DNA of 42,454 bases from NCBI GenBank assembly GCA_016934075.1, contig JAFGTN010000578.1, positions 1 through 42,454 on the forward strand, written 5' to 3'. The position numbers were made by a program, and so were the translations under genes. Position 1 is the first letter of the stretch. The number at the start of each line of letters is the position of its first letter. This DNA is from Pirellulales bacterium. GTDB taxonomy: Bacteria > Planctomycetota > Planctomycetia > Pirellulales > Thermoguttaceae. Shown in pieces: positions 11,512 to 42,454 of the stretch. Under the pieces are notes generated by a model. It was given only the letters and a program-made list of their open reading frames with translations, did not search any database and was not told where the DNA came from.

Positions 11512-11535
11512 ATTGGCCTATTACTAAGCCTGTAT

Positions 11536-16942: not shown

Positions 16943-18067
16943 TCAACTGGCATCCGCTTTTTCCACAATCTCCTTAGCAATCCGTTTCGCGGCGTGTCCG
17001 TCCCACAACTCGGGGCATTTGCCCGTTTTGTAGATACCTTCCAAAACAGCCTGCAAACCATTTCGAAGCAAATTGGCATCATTACCCACCAGCGTGCTGG
17101 TACCTTCAGTAACGGTAATGGGGCGTTCGGTGTTGGGGCGCGCGGTTAGGCAAGGGATGCCCAAAACAGTCGACTCTTCCTGCAATCCACCCGAGTCGGT
17201 CACCGTAACTTTCGATTGCGAAGAAAGCGCCAAAAAGTCAAGATAACCGGCCGGGCCAAGTTGTAAAAGCCCTTTGGCGGATTCGAGTTTCTTGGCGAAT
17301 CCAAAACGTTCGATCCGCTGCTTTGTTCGAGGATGAATGGGAAAAACCAGCGGAAGGCTTTTCGACGTCTCGATCAACACGTCTAGGAGCGGACCCAACG
17401 ATTCGGCCGTGTCTACATTGGCCGGACGATGCAGCGTTACAAGCCCATAAGACCCGGGGGTAAGCCCGTAACGCGCCAGGGTATCGCGAGACTGTGCCTG
17501 AGGGAGTAGTTGTTTTAGTGTATCGATCATCACATTGCCTACCAGCACCATCTCGTCTTCGCTGTGTCCCTCGTTGCGAAGATTGTCCATTCCGGCCGGA
17601 TCGGAAACCAGCAGCAGGTCGGCGATTGCATCGGTGAGGATGCGGTTGATTTCCTCGGGCATGGTGCGATCGAAGCTTCGCAATCCAGCTTCGACATGCG
17701 CGACGGGGATCCCCAACTTGACGGCTGCAATTGTCGTGGCCATGGTCGAGTTCACATCGCCAACAACCAGAACGCGATCGAAAGGCCGGCCATCATCCGT
17801 GGCGTTTTCGAGTACTTCCTCGAAACGTTCGATCACACGAGCCGTTTGTTGGCCGTGCTTGCCCGAGCCGACTTCCAAGGTAATATCCGGCCGGCGCATA
17901 TCGAGTTCTTCGAAGAATACATCGGAGAGGTTCTTGTCGTAGTGTTGTCCAGTGTGGACGAGAACGGTTTCCACGCCCTGATGTGCCTCGAAAGCCTTCA
18001 AGATGGGAGCCATTTTCATGAAATTCGGTCGGGCACCAACGACACATGCCAGTCGTAATTTCGTCAC
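16943..18067 (-). CDS. wecB: UDP-N-acetylglucosamine 2-epimerase, non-hydrolysing family (WecB/WbpI/FnlC-like)
   Basis: GTG start at 18065-18067, 7 nt after AGGAG and 1 nt after the upstream gene's TAA. Motifs VVGARPNFMKMAPI, HTGQHYD, VGDVNST and HVEAGLRS are typical of Epimerase_2 enzymes. Confidence 0.85.
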   Translation of the reverse strand: MTKLRLACVVGARPNFMKMAPILKAFEAHQGVETVLVHTGQHYDKNLSDVFFEELDMRRPDITLEVGSGKHGQQTARVIERFEEVLENATDDGRPFDRVLVVGDVNSTMATTIAAVKLGIPVAHVEAGLRSFDRTMPEEINRILTDAIADLLLVSDPAGMDNLRNEGHSEDEMVLVGNVMIDTLKQLLPQAQSRDTLARYGLTPGSYGLVTLHRPANVDTAESLGPLLDVLIETSKSLPLVFPIHPRTKQRIERFGFAKKLESAKGLLQLGPAGYLDFLALSSQSKVTVTDSGGLQEESTVLGIPCLTARPNTERPITVTEGTSTLVGNDANLLRNGLQAVLEGIYKTGKCPELWDGHAAKRIAKEIVEKADAS

Positions 18068-18068
18068 G

Positions 18069-19328
18069 TTACTTCTCCTCTGGATTTTCTATTATGTCAT
18101 CGCTCGATAGCCCAAGCACTTTTTCAAATGAATGAAGCATTTCCTTTGCCTTGACAGCGCGGCTGAACTCCTTGGCAACCGCGTCACGACCGCACTGGCC
18201 CATTTCTTTTAAGCGTTGTGGATTCTGCTGCAGATCGAGAATTGCATCGACCATGGCCCGGGCATTACCCGAGGGGATGCAGTATCCGGCGCCGGCCTCC
18301 TCTACAATCTCGGCACTACATCCTTCCACGCCGTAGACCATCGGTATACCCATGGCCATGAATTCGAATATCTTAGAAGGAATAACGGTTGTGAAGACTT
18401 TATGGGGACGTAAGTGGACAATTCCAACATCCAAAGCGGCTAAATAAGAAGGTATTTCGTCGTGCGGCACAAAATCGTGGAACATAAGATTGGTGAGATT
18501 CCGATCGCCGGCTTCTTTTTCCAGTTTGGCCCGATCTGCGCCTTCGCCAATGATAACAAAACTGATATCCGGCTGATCGCGACACAGTTCGGCCGCATCG
18601 AGAATCGTTATCAGCCCATGCGCGGCACCCGTGGCCCCGATGTATGCAGCCAGGAATTCGCCCTCCTTGATCCCCAACTTCTCGCGTGCGTCGAATTTGA
18701 CGTTTCCCTCGTTAAAAATCTCGGTATTAACACCGTTCGTGGCCATGTCTAGTTTCTCGCGAGGAATCCCACGCTCGACCAATTCTTCGATAAAGGCGGG
18801 GGTTACAGCCACAATTCGGTCGGCCTTGCGGTACAGGAACATTTCCAGCTTCGTCAACAGACGCATCACGCGCCCCATCTTCAAACCCACCGCTGCAATC
18901 GACGCCGGCCAGAGATCCCGCAGCTCGAACACCCACGGACGGCGGCGGAGCAGTGAAAGGCCGTAAACTCCCACCGGTACGAACAATGGTGGAGATGACG
19001 CAACCATGATATCGAACTTGGGCAACCGCCAGAAGAAAAATATCGCCATTAGCGCGAAACTCAAATAGTCCAGCGAACGCTTGACGATGCCTTCGTTGCT
19101 GGTCATGTAGGTCCAAATGCGGATCACTTTTACACCGTCCATCTCCTCGGTCTGCCAAAGACGGTTACGGTAGCCGGAAAACACCTTGCCGTGAGGGGAA
19201 TTGGGGGCACAAGTCAAGACGGTCACCTCGTGGCCCATTTTCATCCACTGTTGCGCATGATCCATTGTACGAAAACAGGGCGGCGATATCTCGGGCAAAA
19301 ATCTGTCCGTGAGAACAAGGATGCGCAT
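18069..19328 (-). CDS. Glycosyltransferase family 4, WbuB-like
   Basis: The track ORF extends to 19433, but ATG at 19326-19328 (MRILVLTDRFLPEISPP) is preceded by AGGAG. That start also removes the overlap with the upstream gene's stop (19373). The N-terminal pattern MRILVLT..F.PE....GHEVTVLT..PN.P.GK matches WbuB-type GT4. A GT-B C-terminal E-x7-E-like region is present. Confidence 0.85.
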   Translation of the reverse strand: MRILVLTDRFLPEISPPCFRTMDHAQQWMKMGHEVTVLTCAPNSPHGKVFSGYRNRLWQTEEMDGVKVIRIWTYMTSNEGIVKRSLDYLSFALMAIFFFWRLPKFDIMVASSPPLFVPVGVYGLSLLRRRPWVFELRDLWPASIAAVGLKMGRVMRLLTKLEMFLYRKADRIVAVTPAFIEELVERGIPREKLDMATNGVNTEIFNEGNVKFDAREKLGIKEGEFLAAYIGATGAAHGLITILDAAELCRDQPDISFVIIGEGADRAKLEKEAGDRNLTNLMFHDFVPHDEIPSYLAALDVGIVHLRPHKVFTTVIPSKIFEFMAMGIPMVYGVEGCSAEIVEEAGAGYCIPSGNARAMVDAILDLQQNPQRLKEMGQCGRDAVAKEFSRAVKAKEMLHSFEKVLGLSSDDIIENPEEK

Positions 19329-19372
19329 GATATATGACTCCTGGGTATTTCTTATCCGCTTTGTGCTGAGTT

Positions 19373-21115
19373 TTATGGGTGTTTTTCGATACGCCAGGTT
19401 AGTTTGTAAGGTAATTCGACAAAGCTGCGCCAAGCCAATCGCTGCACATCCAGACGCCGGCCATACTCCGGACTATAAGGCCGGACTAGAGTTTCGGCAG
19501 TGACATTATCGGCTTCCAGCTTCGCATAAACCCTCTTGTCATGTCTGACGATTTCCCAACTGTCGTCATACTTTCGGGCCGTCCATCCGGGAGCCAGCAA
19601 TAGTCCACCTTCGAGCGAGTGGCGGCCTCTACCGCTAATCTCGTCGACGATAACAAGGCAGCCTTGGTCGGTAATTTCCACTCTGCGAGTATGGCAGGGC
19701 CGACCATCAAGATGATAATAACCGTCGTGTGATCCCGTGGCTCGCAGGGTATTGTCAGTAGTGTCGCAACTCACACCAATCGGGTGAGCCCGCCGTCCAA
19801 CTCGGAAAATATGCCAGACCTCGCTGGAATCAGTAGAGTCGACACATAATGTATTGTGTGACATCGTAGATCGATCGTAGTATCTCTTTTCGTCATTGTC
19901 GTAAGCGAACGTACCAGGATCTACAAACAACCGCTCACCTTCGAAGGAAGCCTCTATCGTAAGCGTGTCTGCATGTGCATGCCCAGGTTGATAATCCACG
20001 CCTACCGGCCCCACGTCGAAAAACAAACTCCACGGCTGGCCATGCCAGACCACCATACCGAAATTCTCAAAGAGCTTGCCGCCTTTGCGTGGCTTTATGT
20101 CGACCTCCAAACGAAGTACTTTGCAGCCGGCTTTTAACATGTCCCGCGGATGGCAAGCACCGTTCATGCCACCGTCGTTGAATAACGGAACCTGACCATC
20201 GGGATGCCGCATCCAAGCCAGCATATCGGCCATTTTTCGCCAGGTTTCGCGAAGGATTTCCCGCGCGGCCGATTCGTCGACAAGCGAGCCCAGCGTCAAG
20301 AAGTCCTCCATGGCATGGACGTGATACATGGGAGAGCGTTCGAAATGCCCACCGTCCGGCAAAACCTGTTCAGCGGCTTGCGACAGCGCAATCTTAGTGG
20401 CCGATTGCATCCACTCGTCGGCTTGCGATCCGCCAAAAAAACGCCCGGCCCATGCCAACCCCACGGCATCGCGAAGCACGTGGTTGGCGCGGAGGTCCCA
20501 TTCGATATGATCGCCTAGAAACGCCGTTTGCCGCCAGAGACTACGGAGAAATGTGTTTTCCAACTCGCCCCAATTCTTGCGTCCCTCGACGCCCAGCAGA
20601 TGGTAGAGGCGGCACCACCAACCTATTCGAGTTGAGATGGCATAGGCATTCCAAGCCAGATCGCGCGAGCCCTCGGCCACCAGATCGCAATTGGTGATCC
20701 AATCGTCCAGCAACCGTCGCAAGCATGCATCCGCACGATTAGCATCGTCTCCGCCGACAACCACACGACTCGCCAACTCCCAAGCCCAGGCATGATAGTG
20801 CAAGGTAATCGTCCACAGTCTATCGTCGCTTGCCGTTCCAAGCAGCCAGTCGGTTGGCGAGTGGCCCAGCGTTTTGGTCTTATTGAGATGTCCAAAACGC
20901 CCCTCTTCCAACATGGCTACAAATTCGTTACTGTCATTATCATGCTTCACCAGCGGAACTTCGGGAAAATCCCCGCGAAGTTCGATCTCCTCGGGCACCC
21001 ACGGCTCGACCACCGGCCTGGATCTTTCTCGCCGATAGCGCAGCCGCCAGTAAACTTGCGATGGCCGCAAGTGACGTACGGTACGAAAAGTGCGGGCTAA
21101 GGCCGATAGCTTCAT
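19373..21115 (-). CDS. Heparinase II/III-like / alginate-lyase-fold family protein
   Basis: 580-aa ORF with ATG at 21113-21115. The C-terminal half carries GHAHADTLTIE...FVDPGTFAY, characteristic of the heparinase II/III-like domain. The N-terminal half has an alpha-helical toroid-like composition (W/H/L-rich). Confidence 0.75.
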   Translation of the reverse strand: MKLSALARTFRTVRHLRPSQVYWRLRYRRERSRPVVEPWVPEEIELRGDFPEVPLVKHDNDSNEFVAMLEEGRFGHLNKTKTLGHSPTDWLLGTASDDRLWTITLHYHAWAWELASRVVVGGDDANRADACLRRLLDDWITNCDLVAEGSRDLAWNAYAISTRIGWWCRLYHLLGVEGRKNWGELENTFLRSLWRQTAFLGDHIEWDLRANHVLRDAVGLAWAGRFFGGSQADEWMQSATKIALSQAAEQVLPDGGHFERSPMYHVHAMEDFLTLGSLVDESAAREILRETWRKMADMLAWMRHPDGQVPLFNDGGMNGACHPRDMLKAGCKVLRLEVDIKPRKGGKLFENFGMVVWHGQPWSLFFDVGPVGVDYQPGHAHADTLTIEASFEGERLFVDPGTFAYDNDEKRYYDRSTMSHNTLCVDSTDSSEVWHIFRVGRRAHPIGVSCDTTDNTLRATGSHDGYYHLDGRPCHTRRVEITDQGCLVIVDEISGRGRHSLEGGLLLAPGWTARKYDDSWEIVRHDKRVYAKLEADNVTAETLVRPYSPEYGRRLDVQRLAWRSFVELPYKLTWRIEKHP

Positions 21116-21173
21116 AGACTACAATAAGGATTTCGTGTTGCACGCTGGGACTTCCCTGCAACTTTTTGCATGT

Positions 21174-23360
21174 TTACTCCGGTTCGCTGATAACCGATTC
21201 ACGCATCTGGGCGATGGAAATGGGTACTCCTCGCTGGATGCTTTCCAATACGGCAAAACTTACCAAGGTCGTGTCGAACAGAGATTCCGTGCTGATCGGC
21301 GATGACACCCCACGTTGGATAGCGTCGACGAACGCAGCCAGTTCCTGACTATGCCCCTTGTCTGCTTGCATCAACTTGCGAGGCTTGATCCTTTGTGTGT
21401 CGGAATGTATTTCCAGGGTACGGAAATCCGTCAGTACGCCGGCCATACCGCCCGCGAAGACCTCGACGCGTTCCTTGCTGTATGAAGACGGGCCGGTGGA
21501 CGAGTAGACCAACTGGCAAACAGAACCATCTTCGTAGCTTACCGTAATCGCTGCGTCGTCGATCGTCTCGAGCGAGGGAGCCGCCGCAAAAACCGTTACG
21601 GGAGGGGCGCCGGTGAGAAATGTGAAAAAGTCGAGGAAGTGGCATGCTTCGCCGATGATCCGACCACCTTCACTGGGGTCGCTGATCCAGTGGCCCGCCG
21701 GCAAGGAGCCCGCGTTGCATCGATACTGAACATTCAACGCCCCACGTCCGGTAAAATGTTTTTTCAACTCGACGGCCAAGGGCGCAAAACGTCTATTGAA
21801 ACCAATCAACAAGTTGTGTGGATGCGACTGCAGGGTTTTGTGGATCTTGCGTAGGCCGTCGATGTTAATCGACAACGGCTTTTCCACCAGAACAGCCTTT
21901 CCGGCTTCCAAAGCGCGGCAAACGCCGTCGGCATGCTGTGAATGTGGAGTGACGATGACCACGGCATCAGTTTCCGGATCATCCAAGACCTCCGACTCGA
22001 TGGAAGCACAGAAGGCGGCACCGAACTTAGCGCCGGCCGATTTGCTTGCCATTCCGGATGCGTCGACGATTCCCCGTATCGAGACTTTGTTTAACTTCGC
22101 GGCATTGGGCATGTGCACTCCGCGTGCGAAACCACCGGCACCGATGAAGGACAGCCCCACGTTATCTTTGGGTTTCTTGGTCGATGCTTCCGGGAACTCG
22201 ATTCTCGTCGACTCTGCGTCTTTTCCGCCCGCAACGTCTTGTGGATATTCCAGGACGACACCCAGATACGGCTCCTGGTTGCCGAGGATCAATTCGAACG
22301 CCTCCACTGCATCGTCAATGGCAAAACGGTGCGTAGTGCAAACCTCCGGCCGTACCGCTCCGGAAGCCACCATGTCGAGAAACGCCTCGATGTTACGATT
22401 TTCAGTCCAACGAACGTGGCCGACGGGATAATCGTGGCCGTGTTCTTCATAGTCGTTGTCGTAACGTCCCGGACCGTAAGAGCGCGAGACGATGAATGTG
22501 AGTTCCTTTTTGAAGTACGGGGTTCGCGGGATATCCATGCCCGTCACGCCCACCATGATTACTTTAGCGCGGTCTCGAGCCAGGCGTGCCGCCTGTTCGA
22601 CCGGTTCGTTGCTGGAGGTTGCGGCCGTAATCAGGATCGCATCGGCGCCACGCCCGCGGGTGAAGTCCAGAACTTGTTTCTCGGTGCGCTCGCCCTCCAG
22701 TTTCAGCGCCAGTTCAGCGCCGTTTTCGTCTGCCAATTTAACGCGATCCTCGGAAACGTCCAGTGCGGCCACACGGCAACCCGAGGCTTTAAGTATCTGT
22801 ACGGTTAGTTGTCCGATCAAACCCAAACCCGAAACGACGACGGCTTCGCCCACTCGCAAATCAGCCAACCGCACACCCTGTAAAGCAATGGTGCCAACAG
22901 TAGAGTATGCTGCGGCTTCTGTACTCACACCCGCCGGGACGGGCACGGCCAACAGCCGTGGTATATAATTGATTTCGGCATGATTGGCATATCCGGCTCC
23001 GGCACAAGCCACCAGCCCCCCCACTTCAAAACGTCTCGCCCGAGCGCCGACGGCAATTACTTCTCCGCAATTGCTATAGCCCATCGGCATTTCACTGTCG
23101 AGCTTATCGCGGACGGTTTGAAAGGTGGCCCAAAAGCCTTCCCGTTTCATCTTCTCCAAAACTTTTTTGACCAGGTCGGGTCGCTCCTTAGCCTTTCCCA
23201 AAAGGCTTTTTTTGCCCAAAGAAAGCATCATGCGTTCGGTACCGGCGGAGATTAGAGATTTGTGGGTGCGAACCACGATCCCTTCATCTCGCAACATGGG
23301 TGGCGGCACATCTTCGACACTGATTATGCCGGTTTTGAGGTTTTGGAGCATTTGTTTCAT
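21174..23360 (-). CDS. Two-domain oxidoreductase: N-terminal medium-chain (Zn-ADH-like) dehydrogenase domain fused to a C-terminal Gfo/Idh/MocA domain
   Basis: 728 aa, ATG at 23358-23360. The N-terminal half (nt ~22250-23360) has MDR-like features (GYSNCGEV, Rossmann VVVSGLGLIGQL). The C-terminal half (nt ~21177-22180) begins with VGLSFIGAGGFARG and has the EKP motif (VLVEKPL) typical of Gfo/Idh/MocA. Confidence 0.8.
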   Translation of the reverse strand: MKQMLQNLKTGIISVEDVPPPMLRDEGIVVRTHKSLISAGTERMMLSLGKKSLLGKAKERPDLVKKVLEKMKREGFWATFQTVRDKLDSEMPMGYSNCGEVIAVGARARRFEVGGLVACAGAGYANHAEINYIPRLLAVPVPAGVSTEAAAYSTVGTIALQGVRLADLRVGEAVVVSGLGLIGQLTVQILKASGCRVAALDVSEDRVKLADENGAELALKLEGERTEKQVLDFTRGRGADAILITAATSSNEPVEQAARLARDRAKVIMVGVTGMDIPRTPYFKKELTFIVSRSYGPGRYDNDYEEHGHDYPVGHVRWTENRNIEAFLDMVASGAVRPEVCTTHRFAIDDAVEAFELILGNQEPYLGVVLEYPQDVAGGKDAESTRIEFPEASTKKPKDNVGLSFIGAGGFARGVHMPNAAKLNKVSIRGIVDASGMASKSAGAKFGAAFCASIESEVLDDPETDAVVIVTPHSQHADGVCRALEAGKAVLVEKPLSINIDGLRKIHKTLQSHPHNLLIGFNRRFAPLAVELKKHFTGRGALNVQYRCNAGSLPAGHWISDPSEGGRIIGEACHFLDFFTFLTGAPPVTVFAAAPSLETIDDAAITVSYEDGSVCQLVYSSTGPSSYSKERVEVFAGGMAGVLTDFRTLEIHSDTQRIKPRKLMQADKGHSQELAAFVDAIQRGVSSPISTESLFDTTLVSFAVLESIQRGVPISIAQMRESVISEPE

Positions 23361-23426
23361 TTATCTGAAAAACCTTTCCGCCTTTTTCTGAGACTTTTCG
23401 TCCCATAACTCTACCAAAGTCAATAA

Positions 23427-24206
23427 TCAAATCTTCAAGTATTCTTGCACAAGAGCATCCTTTTCATCCCGGCTAGGATAGTTTATCAATACGGCCCGAT
23501 AAACACCCTTAAAAACAAACATACTCCCCGCGGCAGCACCGATAATTCCAAAATTATTGATTAGTTCACCAATGTCCTGAAGCGAACCGGCGCCGCCTAG
23601 AACCGTCAATGGCAAGCTGACGGCTTCTCGGATCTTACTAACAAGCTCATGGTCGTATCCTTCCATAACGCCATCCCGGTCTATAGAATTAACGACGATT
23701 TCTCCCGCACCAAGTTCCTCCACTTGCTTCGCGAATTTTACCGGTGACAAACCAGTTTTCTTTTTGGCGTTATGTGTCCATATTTCATGCTTTCCTCTGA
23801 AGCGGCTTTTTTTTACATCCATGACCACGACCACGCTCTGGCCGCCCACTACTTCTGCCGCCCTGGCCACAATGTCGGGATCACTCACAACCGCCGAACT
23901 CATGGCAACTTTTTCGACACCGAGGCTGATTATTTTGTCAACTTGCTCGACGCTCTTCACACCACCTCCATAGCAAAGCGGCATTCGGCATTCGGCTGCC
24001 AGGTTGCGAATGAGGTTGAAATCCGGCTCGCGATTTTCGGAGGTTGCATCGATATCGAGCACGGTCAACTCATCGACTTCTTTTTCGTTGAATATTTTAA
24101 CGGCGTTTATGGGATCGCCCACGTATTTTGGATTGGTGAAATTCTGGGTTTTTACCAATCCGTTGTTATGAACCAACAGGCAAGGGATAATTCGCGGTCG
24201 CAACAT
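23427..24206 (-). CDS. hisF: HisF-paralogue cyclase subunit of the acetamidino-sugar modification system (WbuZ/HisF2-like)
   Basis: Start placed at ATG 24204-24206 (MLRPRIIPCLL...), 2 nt after the hisH-like TAA, rather than the track start at 24254. TIM-barrel HisF motifs are present: RIIPCL, DELTVLDIDA, GGGV, NSIDRDG, GGAG. Confidence 0.85.
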   Translation of the reverse strand: MLRPRIIPCLLVHNNGLVKTQNFTNPKYVGDPINAVKIFNEKEVDELTVLDIDATSENREPDFNLIRNLAAECRMPLCYGGGVKSVEQVDKIISLGVEKVAMSSAVVSDPDIVARAAEVVGGQSVVVVMDVKKSRFRGKHEIWTHNAKKKTGLSPVKFAKQVEELGAGEIVVNSIDRDGVMEGYDHELVSKIREAVSLPLTVLGGAGSLQDIGELINNFGIIGAAAGSMFVFKGVYRAVLINYPSRDEKDALVQEYLKI

Positions 24207-24208
24207 GT

Positions 24209-25953: not shown

Positions 25954-26011
25954 GCAATTCCTCCGTACTGTGATTATGCTCACAGTGTCAACAAGGAACC
26001 TTTGTATTGGT

Positions 26012-29246: not shown

Positions 29247-29247
29247 C

Positions 29248-30156: not shown

Positions 30157-30182
30157 TGTTCATCAACGCCTGTCGAGAAACC

Positions 30183-31091: not shown

Positions 31092-31129
31092 TAATCTTAC
31101 CTTGCAATCCTACGGAATTTAACTTCTTT

Positions 31130-34162: not shown

Positions 34163-34263
34163 ATTTATGCCTTTGTTATTGTCATAGTTGGTCCTGTTAA
34201 TAACTTGTTCAAAATCTAACGTCAGCCGAATCGTTCATATCATCAAAAGAACTGGTAGTAGGA

Positions 34264-35031: not shown

Positions 35032-35092
35032 TACAAACACCAATTTTTTCTAGAAATTAACAATACTATGCCACGCTATAAAAAAAGAATCT

Positions 35093-36091
35093 TCACTGAA
35101 CTATAGTTTTTATCTCGGTTGGTCCTATTTGTTGTTTAATCTCCATAAAAATACCAAACAAAATAAGTGGCGGAGAAAGATAATTGTGCAACAACCACTG
35201 GTTTAACTTCTGGCGTTTTACGACCACCGAGTAAAGGAAATCACATATAAGACATGCCAGCAACAACTGGCCGACATTAGCATAAGTAAAGGAAGTCAGC
35301 AGGGCCATAACCAGTCCACACAACAATACAATACACAGAAGCAAAAAGGTCGCGAGTCCTCGGTCCGACCTTATCAGCATGAACATAGCACTGGGAATGT
35401 CAATGTTTTTACGTATCAAACGACCACGGAGAAGAGGATATCCCTTTCGGAAATGCTCCCATGAGCGATCGTGGAATTCCTGTGTATGATGTACACCGAC
35501 GAATTGTGGTAACTGTATCAACGTTCCATGCCTTGATATTCTCAATGTGTAATCAAAATCTTGTAACCGCACAAAACTATGATCCCATGTGCCGGCCTTA
35601 TCCACAATCTTCCTAGTGGCAATGAATATTCCACCCGTTATCAGGCATTTCTTTTCTTCAGTCATCTCCTTTCGCCTGACCACCCGCCTAATCTCATCCT
35701 TATAATCTGAGCTGTATTGTATCTCCCGCAGTTTTCCCGTCACCGCGTCGGCCCTGCCCGATTGTATTCTGTCCAAAGCTTCGGATATGAAATCCGGGTA
35801 AAGTTCGACATCGCCGTCAACGAAAAAGATGTATTTTTTTGTGGCGAATCTCATTCCCGCATTTCTTGCAACTGCCGCGTTTACAAAACCAGAGCACTGA
35901 ACGACCCGCAGATTTGCAATCCTGTCGACATAGCTTTTCATGACTTCCAGGGTGTCGTCTGTGGAACCGGAATCCACACAGATTACCTCGCAGTTATCCA
36001 GCGTCATCGCCGCTACGGAATCGAGGCACTTGCCGATGACAGGCGACTCGTTACGTGCAATGATAATGAAAGACATGTTGCTAAATATCAT
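35093..36091 (-). CDS. Glycosyltransferase family 2 with C-terminal transmembrane segments
   Basis: The ATG at 36089-36091 overlaps the upstream stop as ATGA. Motifs: FIIIARNESPVIGKCLDSV, VICVDSGSTDDT, FFVDGDVEL (DxD). C-terminal hydrophobic helices include LATFLLLCIVLLCGLVMALL. Confidence 0.85.
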   Translation of the reverse strand: MIFSNMSFIIIARNESPVIGKCLDSVAAMTLDNCEVICVDSGSTDDTLEVMKSYVDRIANLRVVQCSGFVNAAVARNAGMRFATKKYIFFVDGDVELYPDFISEALDRIQSGRADAVTGKLREIQYSSDYKDEIRRVVRRKEMTEEKKCLITGGIFIATRKIVDKAGTWDHSFVRLQDFDYTLRISRHGTLIQLPQFVGVHHTQEFHDRSWEHFRKGYPLLRGRLIRKNIDIPSAMFMLIRSDRGLATFLLLCIVLLCGLVMALLTSFTYANVGQLLLACLICDFLYSVVVKRQKLNQWLLHNYLSPPLILFGIFMEIKQQIGPTEIKTIVQ

Positions 36092-37449
36092 GTTCCTCTC
36101 GCAATTGCACGGCCGGGAAATCGGTTTTGTTTTTGGACGAACGAGTGGTTGCGTCGCATCTCCTCACGCATTCGCCAAGTCATGAACAGCATTATTCCTA
36201 CCCACAGGGCAAACGAAGGCTTCCAGTAAATCTGCAGTAGGGCTACAATGGTAAAACATAGGTAGAGGCGTATAGCCATGGCAATCGGCTGATATTGCCT
36301 GGGGCCGTGGCGACACACGGCCCGCAAGTCACGAAACATAAAATAGAGAATGATGACAGTCAAAATGATTCCCTGGAAGCCATACTGATACAAAACGGCA
36401 ATGAGCCCATGGTCACTTGGGTTGTAAGGAATGTCCTCTGAACGGTCAGCACCTAAACTGAACTTGCCTGGGCCGATGCCGATAAAACCACCGTCTGCAA
36501 ACTCGTTCATGTAGTATTTGATACCCTCAATTCGCCCGCCGACGGTGCCTTTATTGCTTTGGTAATCCTCGATGCTCGAACTGAAGATGTTGACAACGGA
36601 CTCGAAGACCGCGTCCCCGACGTTCGTGAAAACCAAAGACGCCGTCAAGAGAAAAAATGCCATGATAAGAGTCATGGCCTTGCGGCCGATTTTCAAGTGA
36701 AAAAGCCAGTAAAAGATTGCAACTATCATTAGTCCTATGATGTATCGCCTCGTCATGTCAACAAAGAGGAAATACCACAGGTAGAAAACGAAGAGTGCGA
36801 AAAATATTGCCCGGATCTTAGTGCTCCGTGCGCCGCTTGTACACATAACCAGGCAGTAAAGAAACGAATATACTACCATTGCTCCCAGCGGAGACGTGAG
36901 CCGTTCAGCTTCGAAACGAGACGACACTAGTATGAACATACTAGAAGCAAGACCGGGAATAAACGATACGATAACATATAACAACACGATCACACTGTTA
37001 ATGCCAACGACAACTGCATTCAGATTGGGCACAAAGGCAGAATCAGTTCGGCATGAAATCAAGACGAGACATATAAGCAAAGCGGCATAGTTAAATCCCT
37101 GGCGGGGCAGTTCCAACATGCTATGACCACGGATCACAACGCTATTGATGAAAATTGAAAAAAAAGCAATTGCAATTATTCCCAAGACGGCCAAAGAATA
37201 AAACTTCTTTAAGACACCCTTCATAAGAATCGAAGGCGTGCGAATAACAAATGCAGCAGCAACCAGAAACACCATGGCGATCATGAACACCTCGAAGTGT
37301 TCACTCAAGGTCAACGCTTTCAAATAAAAGCCTCTGCTCCGAAGGAGTATCGCCAGACCGACAAAGAGCAACAATAGTTTGTTGCGTGTTACCGGCGGTA
37401 TTGTCAAATTCTGTGTGATCGTCTGCATTGTCTCGATATGCTCCAGCAC
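36088..37449 (-). CDS. Wzy-like O-antigen polymerase / O-antigen-ligase-family integral membrane protein
   Basis: About 10 or more hydrophobic helices, plus a large loop with GGRIEGIKYY...GIGPGKF...PSDHGLIAVLYQYGFQG, resembling the Wzy_C signature. The track start at 37447-37449 is GTG; an alternative ATG is at 37426-37428. Confidence 0.7.
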   Translation of the reverse strand: MLEHIETMQTITQNLTIPPVTRNKLLLLFVGLAILLRSRGFYLKALTLSEHFEVFMIAMVFLVAAAFVIRTPSILMKGVLKKFYSLAVLGIIAIAFFSIFINSVVIRGHSMLELPRQGFNYAALLICLVLISCRTDSAFVPNLNAVVVGINSVIVLLYVIVSFIPGLASSMFILVSSRFEAERLTSPLGAMVVYSFLYCLVMCTSGARSTKIRAIFFALFVFYLWYFLFVDMTRRYIIGLMIVAIFYWLFHLKIGRKAMTLIMAFFLLTASLVFTNVGDAVFESVVNIFSSSIEDYQSNKGTVGGRIEGIKYYMNEFADGGFIGIGPGKFSLGADRSEDIPYNPSDHGLIAVLYQYGFQGIILTVIILYFMFRDLRAVCRHGPRQYQPIAMAIRLYLCFTIVALLQIYWKPSFALWVGIMLFMTWRMREEMRRNHSFVQKQNRFPGRAIARGT

Positions 37450-37558
37450 TATGTGGAGCGTAATGTCTCAATGGTTGGCCCAGTTGATATGCCTAACGTT
37501 TTCGCAACATCTTCATTTAATACACCAATCGTAAATATGAATCGCCATATACTTGCCC

Positions 37559-38818
37559 TCAGCTCACCAAACCAAGCACCTGATAGATCTCTTTTTTAAT
37601 CCGTTCCGTGCTTCTACCCGCAAAAGGGTTCATTTCGTTTGCTAATTTCTTGAGTTTATCCATTGGATAATTGGTCTTCGCATCAAGCAGCGCTTTTCGC
37701 AGGTTTCGCATGTCGTCCAGCACCGGTGCGAATTGATAAAGCTGCCAAGTAATAGAACCTTTCCATATATACTCAGGGTTCACCGGAACACAAATGATTG
37801 GTTTTTGAAGTAATATTGCATAATCGGCCAAACATGTGTGGTCTGTCAATACAATGTCACAGGCAACCATATGCGGAATAAAGTCTTCATCCGGCTCACG
37901 AATTATGTAACCGTGCTCCCTTTGAGTGCGGAGGTATTCGCCCCATACGCGCTGGCCTGGATATTTCGCCACATATTCATTGGGATGAACACTAATTGTG
38001 AATTGAAATTCTTCTAAGAGCTTGCGTGACTCCTCTAGAAATGCATCCCCCACTGATTCAATCAGGCATTCAGGTCTCCAAGTGCTTAATACAAACACAC
38101 TAGTCTCATTTGGCCCGATCCCCAATTGGCGACGAAATTCTTCTCGGTGATTAGCTTCTGAAAGTACGTTATCGTAGAACATGTCTCCCACGACAGTAAT
38201 GACATTATTTAATGATGGGATGGTCTCTACGATCAAATCACGCACTTTTTCATCTTCCTCAAACATTCGGGAATAGATGGGCTGATCTTTTTTGTAAAGG
38301 TTGAAGATAGACCGCTTCTTGAAGGCCGACTGATCGTATGTAATAGTTGTCCTAGCTCCCGGGAGACATTTATTCTGAGGGCCGTGACCTATGTAGATAG
38401 TTGGACAATTTCGTGGATCCAACAGTAATTTGTATTCCGCATGGCCCGCTCCAACGATCATATCCCATTCACAGAGATAGGCGCGCAGGCTAGACACCTC
38501 TGGAAAAGGTAAAAGCTTTTTTATTATTGCATACACATTAGGAGCCTTCTTGCGGGATGCCTTAATCATGATTTTAAATCGTGCACGATGATCATCGCTG
38601 AATATTTCCGAAAATAGCTTAAGATGTTGAGCCTCCTGAGCGGAACCGCAATGCAAGAGGATATTCCATCGATCCGAAGATCTAAATCGGAAAGTGAGTG
38701 ACCGTGTAATCCAACAGAACACTTTCGCCAACGATGAGTTAAGAAACTGTCTCTTCCAGAATTCCAACCTCAATATACGGCCTATTCTCTTCTTATTATC
38801 ACTCTTGCGTGTGCTCAT
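37559..38818 (-). CDS. TagB/TagF-family (CDP-glycerol glycerophosphotransferase-like) phosphotransferase/polymerase
   Basis: ATG at 38816-38818, 6 nt after AGGAAG. Motifs line up with the Glyphos_transf family: VFVLSTWRPE (cf. YAPTWR), ISVHPNEY (catalytic-His region), VLTDHTCLADYAILLQKPII (cf. ITDYSS..FD...L.KP.I), NPFAGRSTERI. Confidence 0.6.
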   Translation of the reverse strand: MSTRKSDNKKRIGRILRLEFWKRQFLNSSLAKVFCWITRSLTFRFRSSDRWNILLHCGSAQEAQHLKLFSEIFSDDHRARFKIMIKASRKKAPNVYAIIKKLLPFPEVSSLRAYLCEWDMIVGAGHAEYKLLLDPRNCPTIYIGHGPQNKCLPGARTTITYDQSAFKKRSIFNLYKKDQPIYSRMFEEDEKVRDLIVETIPSLNNVITVVGDMFYDNVLSEANHREEFRRQLGIGPNETSVFVLSTWRPECLIESVGDAFLEESRKLLEEFQFTISVHPNEYVAKYPGQRVWGEYLRTQREHGYIIREPDEDFIPHMVACDIVLTDHTCLADYAILLQKPIICVPVNPEYIWKGSITWQLYQFAPVLDDMRNLRKALLDAKTNYPMDKLKKLANEMNPFAGRSTERIKKEIYQVLGLVS

Positions 38819-38832
38819 CTCTTCTTCCTGGG

Positions 38833-38846
38833 TACACGTACGTGTA
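38833..38846. promoter_or_regulatory. Perfect 14-bp palindrome TACACGTACGTGTA immediately upstream of the TagF-like gene's RBS
   Basis: Read directly; the reverse complement is identical. On the coding (minus) strand the order is palindrome - CCC - AGGAAGAAGAG - ATG (38818). It sits in one of the few 100-bp gaps inside the locus. Confidence 0.3.
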
Positions 38847-38921
38847 GAAATGCAAAATATTGGTTTTTTTTAAAGATGGAATTCTGATAACTTCGTTATT
38901 ATTTTGTTTTTTTATTCACAT

Positions 38922-40172
38922 TTATCCTAACAAGAGCAAACCCGCTCTATAAAAATAGCCGTACTTCTGGACCGGAAATTTTATCTCGACGCCGCATTTT
39001 TTCGCTGTTTCAACAACGTCGATACCAACCGCCTCAAGAGGACGGCGAGAAAGATGCGGGAATCTGCATTTCTCCTCATCACAACCATTCGGACACAATT
39101 TGCACGACCCGCCTATAAATGATGTGGCATAGTAATATCCAAGCATACCTGCCTTTTTCTCAAGATCGAGCAATACCCTGTGGAGCGTATTAGTTGAAGA
39201 TTGCCGCACCGAATTATATTCATCTTCTGTATTAAATGTAGATTTGAGAAAAACCATTAGTCCCCTGTTATACGGGCTCAAAAGTGCATGGACATCAAAA
39301 TCATCCGGAAATGGTGGGCATGTCCATGTCTTACCATACTTTGGGCATTCGCTACATTTCAGGAGTACCCTTGAATCAAAGACAAGATCCTGCATAGAGA
39401 TAACTTTTGTCTCAAAGTTAGGTAATGAAAGAACAAAATCGCTTAGTTCATGTATGTTACTAAAAAGCCTGTTGGCTTTTTCAAATTCCTCCAGTTTGTC
39501 TATTTCAATCCAGTTGTACCCTTTTATATTCATTCTGTGAATCTTGTGGTCGTTAATTATCATCTGTATTGCATCTTCGTAATACAAATCGGTTTTGCCG
39601 TCGTTTATTAACGAATCAACTGTGCCAAAATATTGCGATACAAACGCTCCGCTGAATTTATTGACGCCTATGGATTCACCATATTGCGCCTCCGAATTAA
39701 CTGCTAACTCTTTTCCTATTGCAACTATTTCGTCGTTTACTACCTTGGCCTTCATTTCGTCAGCGCCAAGCTCACTCTCGTGATCTACTACCATTACGCT
39801 CTCAAATTCAGAATGCGCAACGTCCATGTATAACCCTGCTTCACACAGTACATCCCCGTCTATGGATATAAAGCCGTCTTGCAAGTAGTCTTTTGCAAGC
39901 CACAACGAATATATGACGTTTGTTGAGTCATATTTATCGTTTATTAAGTATTTTATTTTCAGACCTTTGTAATTGTCCTTCACTGCGTCGGCTATCATTT
40001 GATGTTTATAGCCAATGAGTATAATTACTTCTTCAAGGTTTAGTGGCAGAAGTTTGTCAAGCATGTGGAATATGAGGGGCTTGTTTTCGATCTCAAAAAG
40101 GACCACGGGTTTTTCATCTATAAGAGGTTTAAGACGATCGTCTTTTCCCGCTGCAAGTATGAGTGCTTTCAT
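38922..40172 (-). CDS. Fusion protein: LicC-like nucleotidyltransferase (N-terminal) + Cys-rich putative metal-binding domain (DUF2284-like, C-terminal)
   Basis: ATG at 40170-40172. The N-terminus is MKALILAAGKDDRLKP...NDKYDSTNVIYSLWLAKDYL...IDGDV (LicC/cytidylyltransferase pattern). The C-terminal domain (nt ~38925-39360) has CSECPKYGKTWTCPP (first Cys codon 39354..39356) and GGSCKLCPNGCDEEKC...RRPLEAVGIDV (nt ~39061-39120). Confidence 0.65.
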   Translation of the reverse strand: MKALILAAGKDDRLKPLIDEKPVVLFEIENKPLIFHMLDKLLPLNLEEVIILIGYKHQMIADAVKDNYKGLKIKYLINDKYDSTNVIYSLWLAKDYLQDGFISIDGDVLCEAGLYMDVAHSEFESVMVVDHESELGADEMKAKVVNDEIVAIGKELAVNSEAQYGESIGVNKFSGAFVSQYFGTVDSLINDGKTDLYYEDAIQMIINDHKIHRMNIKGYNWIEIDKLEEFEKANRLFSNIHELSDFVLSLPNFETKVISMQDLVFDSRVLLKCSECPKYGKTWTCPPFPDDFDVHALLSPYNRGLMVFLKSTFNTEDEYNSVRQSSTNTLHRVLLDLEKKAGMLGYYYATSFIGGSCKLCPNGCDEEKCRFPHLSRRPLEAVGIDVVETAKKCGVEIKFPVQKYGYFYRAGLLLLG

Positions 40173-40203
40173 TGGTAATGCTCTTGTATTCTTAAACCAA
40201 ATG

Positions 40204-41280
40204 CTATTTGACTCTGGACATTACATCTTTTAAAGCATCTATAAACCGAGTCATGTCATCTTCCGCAAGGTTCCCTAGAATTCCAACTCTTAAAAACCTG
40301 TCTCTTAGTGGACCTGGAGCGTTGTGGGAAAGTATTATCCCATGCCTCATTTCTAATAGGTCTACAACCTTGTCGGAGTGAATTCCGGGTGGCAACAAAT
40401 ACAGTATTACGGAATTGGCAGGATTTTCACCAAACGGCTCAAGTCCTAATTTATCAAGGCCATTTCTCAGCTTCTGTGTAAGCCCTGCATACCTTTGAAT
40501 CATGTTTTCTATTCCCTCATGACGTATCTTTTCGAGTCTTGCGTTTAGTTGGAAAAGAAGGCTTATCGCCGGTGTGAAAGGAAATTGGCTCATAGGCACA
40601 AAACGCTGATACTCCTTAAGTTGAAAATAGAATTTTGGAAGGCGTGCTGTTTGCATTCTGTCAAACGCTTTGCTACTAAACGAAAGAAAAGAAAGGCCTG
40701 GAGGAAGGGCAAGCCCTTTCTGCGTGCTTGCAACGGCAATGTCAATTCCCCATGCATCGGTCAATAATGGTTCGACGCAAATACTGCTTATGGCATCAAC
40801 TATTAAAAGGATATTTGTTCCTCTTAAGATATTACCGATTGAGGCTATATCAGTTAAAGTCCCTGTCGATGTTTCATTGACTGTAAGGAACACCGCTTTC
40901 GTATCGTTGCTTAACAATTGGCCGATTTGTTCAGTCTTCAATGCCTGACCTGGTTTCAACATGATTTCATTTACATTAATTCCGTATGATCTGCATATTT
41001 TCCCCCATCTTTCTCCGAACACTCCACCGTTGACAGAAATCACATTGTCTTCCGCATTCAGTGTGTTAACAACAGCGGCTTCCATCGCGCCTGTTCCGGA
41101 GCTCGTCAGGGTAAACACATGATTCTGCGTTTGGAAAACGTATTGTAAGCCATCGGTTATTTCTTCCATCATCCTCGAAAACTTCGGAGACCGGAAATAT
41201 ATCATCTTCTTCGAGGCTAATTGCAGTATGTCCTGCTCGATTTCGGTAGGTCCTACCATCATTAATGTTTGATCTGACAT
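40204..41280 (-). CDS. Class V (AGXT/SerC/PhnW-type) PLP-dependent aminotransferase
   Basis: ATG at 41278-41280. Motifs: MVGPTE, SSGTGAMEAA, VDAISS, STQKGLALPPGLSFLSFSSKA with the putative PLP Lys codon at 40717..40719. The pattern is closest to serine-pyruvate/alanine-glyoxylate-type enzymes. Confidence 0.75.
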   Translation of the reverse strand: MSDQTLMMVGPTEIEQDILQLASKKMIYFRSPKFSRMMEEITDGLQYVFQTQNHVFTLTSSGTGAMEAAVVNTLNAEDNVISVNGGVFGERWGKICRSYGINVNEIMLKPGQALKTEQIGQLLSNDTKAVFLTVNETSTGTLTDIASIGNILRGTNILLIVDAISSICVEPLLTDAWGIDIAVASTQKGLALPPGLSFLSFSSKAFDRMQTARLPKFYFQLKEYQRFVPMSQFPFTPAISLLFQLNARLEKIRHEGIENMIQRYAGLTQKLRNGLDKLGLEPFGENPANSVILYLLPPGIHSDKVVDLLEMRHGIILSHNAPGPLRDRFLRVGILGNLAEDDMTRFIDALKDVMSRVK

Positions 41281-41340
41281 CTATTTCCCTAATATTAAAA
41301 AGTGGTCGTCAAGTGTTCAAATTCAATTTGTCAGCAGATT

Positions 41341-42042
41341 TCAAAAAGGTCTGAAATTGTTCCTGGCTTCTTCAAGCTCGTCTATATTGTCCACCTCGAA
41401 CCACGACTTGCCCTTAACATCCGTGAAGCCGATCTTTTCACCTTCTCTTGCAAGAGCCGCAAATACATTCTCAAACCACTCTCCAGTACGCTTCTGATCG
41501 ATAAACTCTTCGAGTTTCTGTAATACCTTTGCGGAAGCAGCTTTTCTTATCATTATTATGCCGGCATATTCGCCAAATATTGTTTCCGGAGTCAGGTCCA
41601 TACTCATGTCAGTAATGCATCCGTTTCTTACCGATGTTTTGTATCCCTTTTCCAGTTTCCAGTCTGTGTTCAAAGCTACACAAATGTCAGAATTGCAGTT
41701 GCGCATACTGCGTATGACGGATGGCTCACATATAACGTCACTATTGATGATCAAGCAATCTGAATCCAGGTGCTCCTTTGCCAAAAATAAAGATACAATG
41801 CTATTTGTTGAAAGATAATCCCAATTGAGTACATAAGTCACTCCCCCACCTAGTCTGCTCCTTATCTTCTCGGCAAGATATCCTACAACAACTACAATAT
41901 CCTTTATGCCGCACTTTGTGAAAGCTGATATCTGGTGCTCAATAACGGCCTTACCTGCAATGTCAATAAGACATTTGGGGATAGTGTCAGTTAACGGCCG
42001 CATTCTGCTTCCAACACCAGCGGCCATTATAATTGCTTTCAT
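41341..42042 (-). CDS. LicC-like nucleotidyltransferase (phospho-alcohol/phosphonate cytidylyltransferase family)
   Basis: The track start ATG is at 42046-42048. A second ATG at 42040-42042 (MKAIIMAAGVGSRMRPLT) has AAGGA 8 nt upstream and was chosen. The G-x-G-x-R-(L/M) NTP-binding loop is present. NWDYLSTNSIVSLFLAKEHL...INSDV parallels the LicC motif N-x-x-Y-x-x-x-N-x-x-x-S-L. Confidence 0.7.
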   Translation of the reverse strand: MKAIIMAAGVGSRMRPLTDTIPKCLIDIAGKAVIEHQISAFTKCGIKDIVVVVGYLAEKIRSRLGGGVTYVLNWDYLSTNSIVSLFLAKEHLDSDCLIINSDVICEPSVIRSMRNCNSDICVALNTDWKLEKGYKTSVRNGCITDMSMDLTPETIFGEYAGIIMIRKAASAKVLQKLEEFIDQKRTGEWFENVFAALAREGEKIGFTDVKGKSWFEVDNIDELEEARNNFRPF

Positions 42043-42133
42043 AACCATATTCCTTTGTGAGTTTCACGACAACTTCCGAGAGACACCTAGCAACAAACGT
42101 TATCATCTCCTTCCATAAGTTTCCCTGCCATTG

Positions 42134-42454
42134 TCAAAGGCCATTGTTTTGCTTTTTGACTTCTTGTCTTTTCGGAATCAAAAAAGATGCGAAGCCATAT
42201 ATTCGCCTCAACTCTCTTACCCCCCCGGGCATCGCAATCCAAACCAAAATAAATACACCGACGCCAACGAGGAAAGAAAATAATACTTGAAGAAAAACGC
42301 TTTGCGATACGATCAAAAAAGAAGAACAGGATAACACAGCGCCCATAACGATACTTGCTACCATTGGCCGCCAGACACTTATAAAAAACGTGCCTATGGT
42401 CACAGGCGTGTATCTAAAGCAATACCACAAAGATGGGGCCAATTCGAGATTCCA
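42134..42454 (-). CDS. 3' end of a multi-pass membrane protein, probably the Wzx-type (MOP family) flippase; gene continues beyond the window
   Basis: The track 'M' at 42440-42442 is TTG, and the frame stays open to nt 42454 (…W N L E L A P S L W…). There are three hydrophobic helices followed by a short basic tail, as at the C-terminus of polysaccharide flippases. Confidence 0.45.
   Translation of the reverse strand, partial: WNLELAPSLWYCFRYTPVTIGTFFISVWRPMVASIVMGAVLSCSSFLIVSQSVFLQVLFSFLVGVGVFILVWIAMPGGVRELRRIYGFASFLIPKRQEVKKQNNGL

Follow-up and report, generated by a model that had tools for sequence, protein, structure and literature searches.

Acetamidino sugar systems are represented by the wbp locus of Pseudomonas aeruginosa O5 (hisH2-hisF2-wbpG), by wbuXYZ of Escherichia coli O145 and by lfnA of P. 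aeruginosa O12. For another type of glycan decoration, the CDP-2-glycerol pathway of pneumococci, the roles of the enzymes encoded by wchX-gtp1-gtp2-gtp3 were reportedly assigned by Wang et al. in 2010. Phosphodiester-linked head groups are also the business of the Lic, TarI/TarJ-TagF/TarL and PntC-AEPT systems (PDB 1jyk, 3l7i, 8va1 and 6pd1), in which a LicC-fold cytidylyltransferase is coupled to a phosphodiester-forming transferase, while CapK proteins are found in capsule loci and in exosortase (PEP-CTERM/XrtA) exopolysaccharide (EPS) loci. The 25.5 kb region described here, positions 16943-42454 on the minus strand of contig JAFGTN010000578.1 (GenBank assembly GCA_016934075.1, Pirellulales bacterium), carries three cassettes, each of which has a known counterpart in the acetamidino systems, the CapK/exosortase EPS loci or the Lic/Tag/Tar/PntC chemistry; the window that was analysed is the entire contig of 42,454 nucleotides. 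We consider it probable, at roughly three in four, that this region is an allele of a Wzx/Wzy-dependent locus for a surface polysaccharide (O-antigen, capsule or EPS), which is modular and hypervariable and belongs to an uncultured bacterium. The three cassettes plausibly add amidino, amide/methyl and phosphodiester-linked groups to the product, and the combination is novel only as any serotype-like allele is novel.

The locus forms an unbroken run of open reading frames (ORFs) on one strand, numbered in order of increasing coordinate as g1 to g22, so that the putative operon ends, on its 3' side, with g1. Twenty-one of these ORFs are complete and the last, g22 (42134-42454), is truncated where it leaves the window, so that the count of 21 genes given by the first-pass annotation rises to 22 ORFs, while its description of a single-strand run with the last gene cut off at 42454 was correct. 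The run is approximately 97% coding, with about 755 nt of the 25.5 kb being non-coding, and the gaps between the longest ORFs measure -68 to +109 nt, in line with the gaps of about 0-110 nt and the overlaps reported earlier. The g9 and g10 ORFs overlap and leave no promoter space between them. A simple scan for promoter- and terminator-like sites was uninformative, as such sites were no commoner than in shuffled sequence; it gave no minus-strand terminator-like site between genes, and no tRNA genes or Rfam matches were found in scans. Domain identities were obtained by Pfam and NCBIfam searches of 27 large ORFs (the 22 of the run and five upstream), and these searches, which the first-pass annotation had itself proposed for the proteins of the run, confirmed each of its three cassettes: the WbuX/HisH/HisF set (cassette i), an adenylate-forming ligase-methyltransferase fusion with a neighbouring CapA-like PGA_cap partner (cassette ii), and a teichoic-acid-like phosphotransferase set with an aminotransferase, encoded by g18-g21 (cassette iii). 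The decoration with amidino, amide/methyl and phosphodiester groups which had been proposed from them is plausible on this basis.

The modular nature of the locus is most evident from a block comparison in which the window was aligned with related contigs by blastn, and protein identities and gene order were considered alongside. The first block (16954-23359, g1-g4) has about 77% nucleotide identity to contigs L089 and L091, and the second (26804-29264, the CapK part of g8 together with g9) has 75-81% identity to the same two contigs. The intervening third block of 3.4 kb (23360-26803, g5-g7 and the methyltransferase domain of g8) is without counterpart in either of these, the slot being occupied in L089 by an unrelated stand-alone methyltransferase and an Asn_synthase-type amidotransferase, and in L091 by a Gfo/Idh/MocA gene. 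The fourth block (37490-42124, g18-g21) is 88% identical to L003, with protein identities of 84-95% to L003 and L004, and the fifth, g10-g16, is syntenic with L095 at 65-81% amino-acid identity (27% for the g15-like gene) and, more distantly, with L096-L102; the shared order is a Wzy-type gene (in L095 and L098), a family 2 glycosyltransferase (GT2) with transmembrane (TM) segments, a membrane nucleotidyltransferase, a GT4, a GT-B enzyme, a P-loop protein and a GT2. Relatives of the modules on other metagenome contigs range from 65 to 95% amino-acid identity, and the best named relatives, at 38-52% identity, come from metagenome-assembled genomes (MAGs) of Planctomycetota, Omnitrophota and Margulisiibacteriota. 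As L091 additionally matches the 5' part of the flanking tetratricopeptide repeat (TPR) gene, this relative carries the locus, in a form of its own, at the same position in the chromosome. The GC content is 0.52-0.56 in g1-g4, like that of the flank, and 0.40-0.50 in g5-g22, which agrees with a mosaic. Comparison at the DNA and protein levels shows the locus to be a mosaic that comprises five or more modules with independent relatives, and in which the acetamidino cassette and the adjoining methyltransferase domain occupy a replaceable slot; the unusual single design perceived by the first-pass annotation is better described as the normal variation of such loci. Among the relatives found, there was none whose glycan structure has been solved, so the earlier statement that the product matches no described structure stands in so far as no such locus was matched; as the close relatives are all metagenome contigs or MAGs, the mismatch reflects uncultured sources and not demonstrably new chemistry.

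The acetamidino cassette comprises g5 (23427-24254), which specifies an AglZ/HisF2 (WbuZ-type) cyclase-like subunit (NF038364, 385 bits against a cut-off of 310), g6 (24209-24829), specifying a HisH-type glutaminase subunit (GATase; TIGR01855, 223 bits against 105), and g7 (24826-25983), encoding a WbuX-family N-acetyl sugar amidotransferase of the PP-loop ATPase type (TIGR03573, 333 bits against 203). The three genes abut or overlap, all three products pass these curated models, and the set shares 63-84% amino-acid identity with that of L017, the highest value being that of g7 (84%). From what is known of these families, the HisH/HisF2 pair would pass glutamine-derived ammonia to the ATP-dependent WbuX protein for conversion of an acetamido into an acetamidino group, and an acetamidino sugar is a plausible component of the product. 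As in P. aeruginosa O5 and O12 and E. coli O145, a WbuX-family amidotransferase lies beside HisH/HisF paralogues in a Wzx/Wzy locus. In contrast to those systems, the window holds none of the WbpA/B/D/E or FnlA/B/C precursor genes, and its cassette is a swapped-in one, with Asn_synthase or Gfo/Idh/MocA genes in the same slot in relatives.

The exchange of material at this slot is also reflected in g8 (26012-28222), which combines a CapK/PaaK-type adenylate-forming enzyme (residues 1-473) with a class I S-adenosylmethionine-dependent methyltransferase (approximately residues 540-650). Its adenylate-forming part matches the NCBIfam PaaK, F390-synthetase and DVU_1553 models, all under their equivalog cut-offs, and PaaK structures at an E value of 2e-22 among PDB sequences; methyltransferase Pfam families are also matched, and PF27533 (CapK_C) is given in the precomputed annotation of the g8 protein and its relatives. 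The stored gene call is 535 aa long as compared to 736 aa for the homology-supported ORF, with relatives aligning from residue 1. The close relatives of g8 are all stand-alone CapK proteins of 477 aa, and a methyltransferase fusion was found in none of the 120 best relatives. DNA homology to the capK genes of L089 and L091 ends exactly at the capK stop codon (residue 473, nt 26804), beyond which the g8 ORF stays open across a linker of some 65 residues and leads into a methyltransferase domain, this domain being unrelated to the methyltransferase encoded separately after capK in L089. The fusion arose through the exchange of cassettes at this junction. The adjacent gene g9 (28215-29315) encodes a PGA_cap protein of the CapA/MslH-type metallophosphatase fold (PGA_cap E value 1.9e-30; PDB match MslH, 8gq9) with 71-73% identity to its relatives, and, as PGA_cap also adjoins CapK in L089, L091 and L094, g9 is a fixed partner of CapK. 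Judging from the families, g8 would adenylate a carboxylate and couple it as an amide or ester, the fused domain would methylate, and g9 would act as their partner.

The genes at the low-coordinate end of the run supply and modify sugars, if family knowledge is a guide. A non-hydrolysing UDP-GlcNAc 2-epimerase (WecB) encoded by g1 (16943-18067; TIGR00236, 294 bits against a cut-off of 210; 88-91% identity to L089 and L091) would yield UDP-ManNAc. The WcaI-like GT4 glycosyltransferase g2 (18069-19433) scores 180 bits with the WcaI family, under the cut-off, and shares 83-88% identity with its counterparts in L089 and L091, which are 408-409 aa long; its true start is likely Met36 at nt 19328. 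Both Hepar_II_III_N and _C domains are present in the heparinase II/III-like protein of g3 (19373-21115; heparinase III PDB matches at E 1e-10 to 1e-13; 73-75% identity to L089 and L091), which could possibly be a lyase-fold uronate (C5-)epimerase or modifier, and g4 (21174-23360; 87-89% identity to L089 and L091) specifies a bi-domain oxidoreductase (ADH_zinc_N and Gfo/Idh/MocA), so that g3 and g4 together would oxidise and/or epimerise a sugar. As in exosortase EPS and CapK capsule loci, a block of CapK, oxidoreductase, heparinase II/III-like protein and GT4 (with WecB) recurs, and the architecture of g4 adjoins CapK and a heparinase-like gene in L093 and L094; unlike the exosortase-type loci, the window is devoid of an exosortase or EpsI, and g2 and g14 match the exosortase-type stp2/stp3 glycosyltransferase models at scores far under the equivalog cut-offs. 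In the 4.6-Mb genome that contains L093, a fused exosortase EpsH-EpsI (17062-18663) is located directly after this block and is followed by a Glycos_transf_4 initiating enzyme. A literature search on the block of heparinase-like protein, oxidoreductase and GT4 produced nothing useful.

The central module, g10-g16, contains most of the glycosyltransferases. The GT2 enzymes g10 (29248-30156) and g11 (30183-31091), both with Glycos_transf_2 domains, are tandem paralogues with 72% amino-acid and 72.6% nucleotide identity, and as the pair is also arranged in tandem in L095 (8724-10645) and L096, the duplication predates the split of these lineages. They are followed by g12 (31130-31822), a P-loop kinase-like protein (GIDGSGKST), then by two GT-B enzymes, g13 (31773-33029; Glyco_trans_1_4 and Glycos_transf_1, the C-terminal GT1 domain alone being recognised; 78% identity to L095) and the GT4 enzyme g14 (32972-34162; Glycos_transf_1 at E 5e-41 and Glyco_transf_4; 81% identity to L095), by g15 (34264-35043), a membrane-anchored minimal nucleotidyltransferase of the MNT/Pol-beta type with the motif YGS...SDIDIRV, and by g16 (35093-36091), a GT2 with C-terminal TM segments at residues 238-292 (Glycos_transf_2 at E 1.4e-30; 71% identity to L095). 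Canonical glycosyltransferases therefore number six (g10, g11 and, with its TM segments, g16 as GT2 enzymes, and g2, g13 and g14 as GT-B enzymes) and not seven as previously counted (three GT2, one GT2-TM and three GT-B), the TagF-like GT-B protein g18 being extra to these, and the six would assemble a lipid-linked repeat unit if they act as their families do.

Two genes of this module had been set aside as orphans by the first-pass annotation, a designation which the conserved gene order in L095-L102 contradicts. For g12 the support for the proposed Tmk-fold kinase is confined to the P-loop, where the protein is dTMP-kinase/APS-kinase-like, with Thymidylate_kin scoring 24.9 bits and APS_kinase 19.1 bits, both under the Pfam cut-offs; the L095 orthologue scores 22.2 bits with APS_kinase (cut-off 21.1), and g12 is kept beside g13 and g14 in eight loci. 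Likewise, the assignment of g15 as a nucleotidyltransferase is supported by its GS...DxD motif and by a Polbeta score of 20.2 bits, under the cut-off, with its positional equivalents in L095 and L098 exceeding the cut-off of NTP_transf_2. A g15-like gene occupies the same position in six related loci at 26-28% identity, and no close relative of g15 was found in JGI metagenomes. Since the order of g10-g16 recurs in related contigs, g12 and g15 belong, as constant components, to a conserved module of glycosyltransferases. Sulfotransferase genes, which the window lacks, are located at 3571-4650 in L095 and at 1280-2215 in L098, both relatives of the central module, and at 11464-12366 in L088, a locus with a g18 relative; these genes and the APS_kinase score of the L095 orthologue raise the possibility that, in certain alleles, the P-loop protein has a connection with sulfation.

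The Wzx/Wzy label itself is carried by g17 and g22. The former (36088-37449) is assigned as a Wzy-type polymerase of the Wzy_C superfamily on the basis of 12 predicted hydrophobic (approximately 12 TM) segments and of its relatives, 29 of 44 aligned ones matching Wzy_C and arginines R183, R234 and R306 being invariant; its positional equivalent in L095 matches Wzy_C at 44.3 bits, above the cut-off, and that in L098 at 20.8 bits, under the cut-off of 31.7. The g17 family is tiny and divergent, a search of 1.84 billion proteins having returned 74 cluster representatives with a best identity of 40%, and g17 may be a WaaL-type ligase instead of a polymerase. The latter gene, g22, encodes what is probably the C-terminal end of a Wzx-type flippase, a fragment of 106 aa with approximately 3-4 TM helices, which aligns with residues 403-477 of a 495-aa Polysacc_synt protein of L087 at 35% identity (pairwise E value 2e-10). 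Because Wzy_C is found in the relatives and positional equivalents of g17, and g22 aligns with the C-terminus of a flippase, the Wzx/Wzy label given by the first-pass annotation is reasonable, its polymerase being upheld through these relatives, and its flippase-like fragment resting on the 35% match. In such a scheme Wzx would flip the repeat unit and Wzy would polymerise it.

A number of points weigh against a single Wzx/Wzy-dependent locus. Neither g17 nor g22 has a Pfam match of its own, even at an E value of 10, and both the enzyme roles, taken from their families, and a single operon across the run are inferred. No initiating phosphoglycosyltransferase, Wzz, Wza/Wzc or ABC exporter was matched by family among the 27 large ORFs, as the first-pass annotation had also found; however, the window is the entire contig, and this result is therefore not to be read as the absence of such genes, since the initiating and chain-length genes may sit upstream of wzx, as they do in L087. 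Finally, the modules occur separately elsewhere, and L093 and L094 have an initiating transferase of their own, which makes more than one polymer possible.

This last point is the basis of the alternative that survives best, namely that two or more independent systems lie side by side, an exosortase-type EPS module (g1-g9) and a Wzx/Wzy module (g10-g22) producing different polymers. The block of g1-g4 and g8-g9 ((PGA_cap)-CapK-oxidoreductase-heparinase-like-GT4) indeed recurs in distant genomes with its own Glycos_transf_4, accompanied by an exosortase (EpsH/EpsI) in L093 or by Wzx in L094, the central block is found on separate contigs that lack the g1-g9 block within their reach, the GC content differs between the blocks, and g2 and g14 resemble glycosyltransferases of the PEP-CTERM system. 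However, a single Wzy and a single Wzx were seen in the window, one strand is used throughout, the overlap of g9 and g10 would not accommodate a promoter, and the intergenic gaps hold no terminator-like site, while the related contigs are short, so that the separate occurrence of the central block may be an assembly artefact. We consider this alternative unlikely, and retain a single modular Wzx/Wzy-dependent locus as the preferred interpretation.

The phospho-head-group cassette is located between wzy and wzx and begins with g18 (37559-38818), which encodes a putative TagF-like phospho-alcohol transferase of 419 aa with a GT-B fold. The stored gene call has 336 aa as compared to this homology-supported ORF, with which relatives align from residue 1 and which is 87% identical over its full length to L003. 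No Pfam match was obtained for g18, even at an E value of 10, PF04464 (Glyphos_transf) being missed, and a profile search against PDB sequences returned the TagF-like Cps3D at a weak E value of 0.045; three of its approximately 20 relatives carry PF04464 in precomputed annotation. The AlphaFold2 (AF2) model (pLDDT 84) has a GT-B fold with its highest TM-scores to TagF (3l7i-m, 0.58-0.62), Cps3D and TarL, those to UDP-GlcNAc 2-epimerases being close behind (0.55-0.56), and the pairs H145-G146 and H278-P279 are invariant in the family. Four of the relatives (P0101, P0102, P0109 and P0112) are fused at the N-terminus to a GNAT acetyltransferase, which is consistent with the transferred group carrying an amine. 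In L086 (10001-12079), from a Planctomycetes MAG, genes for a class V aminotransferase and a nucleotidyltransferase precede such a fusion, and the locus has no DUF2284 gene.

The following gene, g19 (38922-40172), combines a degenerate LicC-like nucleotidyltransferase fold (residues 1-240) with DUF2284 (residues 256-407), Pfam giving DUF2284 at an E value of 2e-32 as well as NTP_transferase. Seven cysteines of the DUF2284 domain (C273, C276, C285, C357, C360, C364 and C369) are invariant in an alignment of 24 relatives. The AF2 model of g19 has a pLDDT of 85, and the Foldseek matches are taken up by its N-terminal domain, with PntC-AEPT and LicC at the top; this domain has the motif AAGKDDRL (family consensus VAGxEKKL...HQ) and is without the GxG[ST]R motif and the PK lysine, the GxG[ST]R...PK signature being retained by every stand-alone neighbour enzyme. 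Profile searches against PDB sequences gave no solved relative of DUF2284, the literature that mentions the domain gives no function for it, and g19 had neither a second copy by exact look-up nor a 100% match in a scan of GTDB genomes. The two remaining genes specify a class V aminotransferase of the AGXT/serine-glyoxylate type (g20, 40204-41280; Aminotran_5 at E 1.8e-30) and a LicC/PntC-type cytidylyltransferase with the canonical motif AAGVGSRMRPLT...PK (g21, 41341-42048). The closest PDB matches of g20 are AGXT/SGAT enzymes (E 1e-40 to 1e-50), ahead of 2-aminoethylphosphonate (AEP) transaminases (E 1e-13 to 1e-17), and its NCBIfam scores are under the cut-offs for BhcA (229 against 650 bits) and PhnW-AepZ (170 against 361 bits); g21 matches NTP_transf_3 and NTP_transferase in Pfam, and its best PDB matches are LicC (1jyk, E 3.7e-20) and, over its full length, PntC-AEPT (6pd1, E 1.1e-16).

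Taken together, g18-g21 probably attach an amino-alcohol phosphate. By analogy with the respective families, g20 would produce a small amine by transamination, g21 would activate the phosphate ester of this amine with CTP, and g18 would link the phospho-amino-alcohol to the glycan through a phosphodiester, with g19, a pseudo-nucleotidyltransferase joined to the cysteine-rich DUF2284, supplying a third step. The cassette shares with the Lic, Tar and PntC-AEPT systems a LicC-fold cytidylyltransferase and a phosphodiester-forming transferase and, with PntC-AEPT in particular, the association of an aminotransferase with the cytidylyltransferase. It differs from them in that the window has no choline kinase or transporter, PEP (phosphoenolpyruvate) mutase or decarboxylase, in that the aminotransferase is AGXT-type, and in the extra conserved DUF2284 partner, which is fused to a domain without the CTP-binding signature. 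A similar logic applies to the pneumococcal CDP-2-glycerol cassette beside wzx, in which an enzyme acting on a carbonyl compound is combined with a LicC-like cytidylyltransferase, with one further enzyme and with a transferase for the phospho-alcohol. The aminotransferase takes the place of the pneumococcal reductase in our locus, whose product would consequently carry an amine, and the closest analogues of the pneumococcal cassette look to be those DUF2284 loci which contain a short-chain dehydrogenase/reductase (SDR). In pneumococci the genes are ordered wchX-gtp1-gtp2-gtp3 (PMC5581491, PMC1391919).

The distribution of such cassettes was assessed in a survey of 83 non-redundant DUF2284 loci. 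A LicC-like nucleotidyltransferase is located within 3 kb of DUF2284 in 80 of these, fused N-terminally to it in Planctomycetota, Omnitrophota and Margulisiibacteriota and encoded by a separate downstream gene in Clostridia. An aminotransferase lies beside DUF2284 in 36 loci (22 class V and 14 class I/II) and an SDR takes its place in 25, the two never occurring together (0 of 83), while a LicD, TagF-like or CDP-OH_P_transf gene is present within 6 kb in at least 42 loci, a lower bound because detection was at BLAST level; methyltransferases are frequent neighbours. Carriers comprise many gut Clostridia, and those among cultured gut Firmicutes include Phascolarctobacterium faecium DSM 14760 (L059, 8398-11254; LicD-SDR-DUF2284-NTP), Clostridium cadaveris JCM 1392 (L053, 6637-15099; Glyphos_transf-x-DUF2284-NTP-SDR, about 1.5 kb from fliF) and, as a further gut bacterium, Flavonifractor plautii. 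Such a pattern points to a pathway in which a carbonyl precursor would first be either reduced or transaminated and then phosphorylated or processed in some other way, before its activation with CTP and its transfer in phosphodiester linkage; this resembles TarI/TarJ and the wchX-gtp1-gtp2-gtp3 cassette. We tentatively put forward, as a possibility somewhat short of an even chance, that these loci represent an undescribed and widespread pathway for CDP-activated head groups, made up of the cysteine-rich DUF2284 protein, a LicC-type cytidylyltransferase, an aminotransferase or SDR, and a LicD, TagF-like or CDP-alcohol transferase. In such a pathway DUF2284 would probably be a metal or Fe-S protein, and the aminotransferase variants may yield an amino-alcohol phosphate (for example one resembling serinol phosphate) and the SDR variants a polyol phosphate.

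The acceptor of the head group may be questioned, as the cassette could modify flagellin, an S-layer glycan, the lipopolysaccharide (LPS) core or a lipid head group instead of the Wzy polymer. The vicinity of fliF to the C. cadaveris cassette hints at decoration of flagellin or of a surface glycan, and the transferase of L001, L005 and L008 is a membrane enzyme of the CDP-alcohol phosphatidyltransferase family, typical of lipid or inositol acceptors. In the window, however, the cassette is placed between wzx and wzy, the g18 relative of L087 is found inside a capsule locus with Wzi, Wza, Wzz, Wzx and Wzy, and glycosyltransferases flank the cassette in L023 and L086, all of which make another acceptor quite improbable. 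A phosphonate reading, in which cassette iii would make and attach AEP as CMP-AEP in the manner of PntC/AEPT phosphonoglycan systems, was rejected as the least probable of all, for although PntC-AEPT (6pd1) is the best structural match of the g19 N-terminal domain and a full-length sequence match of g21, g20 has a sub-threshold match to PhnW-AepZ and PEP mutase is fused to some distant nucleotidyltransferase relatives, g20 is far closer to AGXT/serine-glyoxylate enzymes than to AEP transaminases and reaches less than half of the PhnW-AepZ cut-off, the SDR found in place of the aminotransferase in 25 loci is a misfit with AEP synthesis, and no PEP mutase (Ppm) or phosphonopyruvate decarboxylase (Ppd) was seen in the window or among the scanned or Pfam-annotated genes of the nine DUF2284 neighbourhoods inspected closely.

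The part of the window preceding the polysaccharide locus encodes proteins of other kinds. A protein of 773 aa in which a dockerin is the single recognised domain (9-2330, plus strand) is followed by a 408-aa URO-D-family protein (2290-3516, minus strand), of which the C-terminal half alone matches, suggesting an MtaA/CmuA-like methyltransferase. The 2003-aa ORF at 3921-9932 (plus strand), with clostripain (Peptidase_C11), three PPC, Big_5 and C-terminal dockerin domains, specifies a protease of very large size that is either secreted or anchored. A Ser/Thr protein kinase (515 aa) and then a 1667-aa TPR protein are encoded at 9964-16539 (minus strand), and the TPR gene, with a lower GC content of 0.46-0.49 and a strong AT skew of -0.15 to -0.21, is unlike its surroundings.

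As an allele, the locus adds one serotype-like variant to the large diversity expected of Wzx/Wzy systems, with little general consequence, and it illustrates how such loci are rebuilt by cassette swaps at fixed junctions, as in the case of the capK stop codon which gave way to the CapK-methyltransferase fusion. Its most novel element is the DUF2284 head-group cassette, which is worth following up: if the proposed pathway is true, DUF2284 gains a first functional context, and this would extend to cultured gut bacteria. The co-occurrence pattern provides a testable function for this domain and points to an undescribed phosphodiester-linked decoration on culturable gut commensals, whose availability in culture makes the DUF2284 cassette experimentally accessible.

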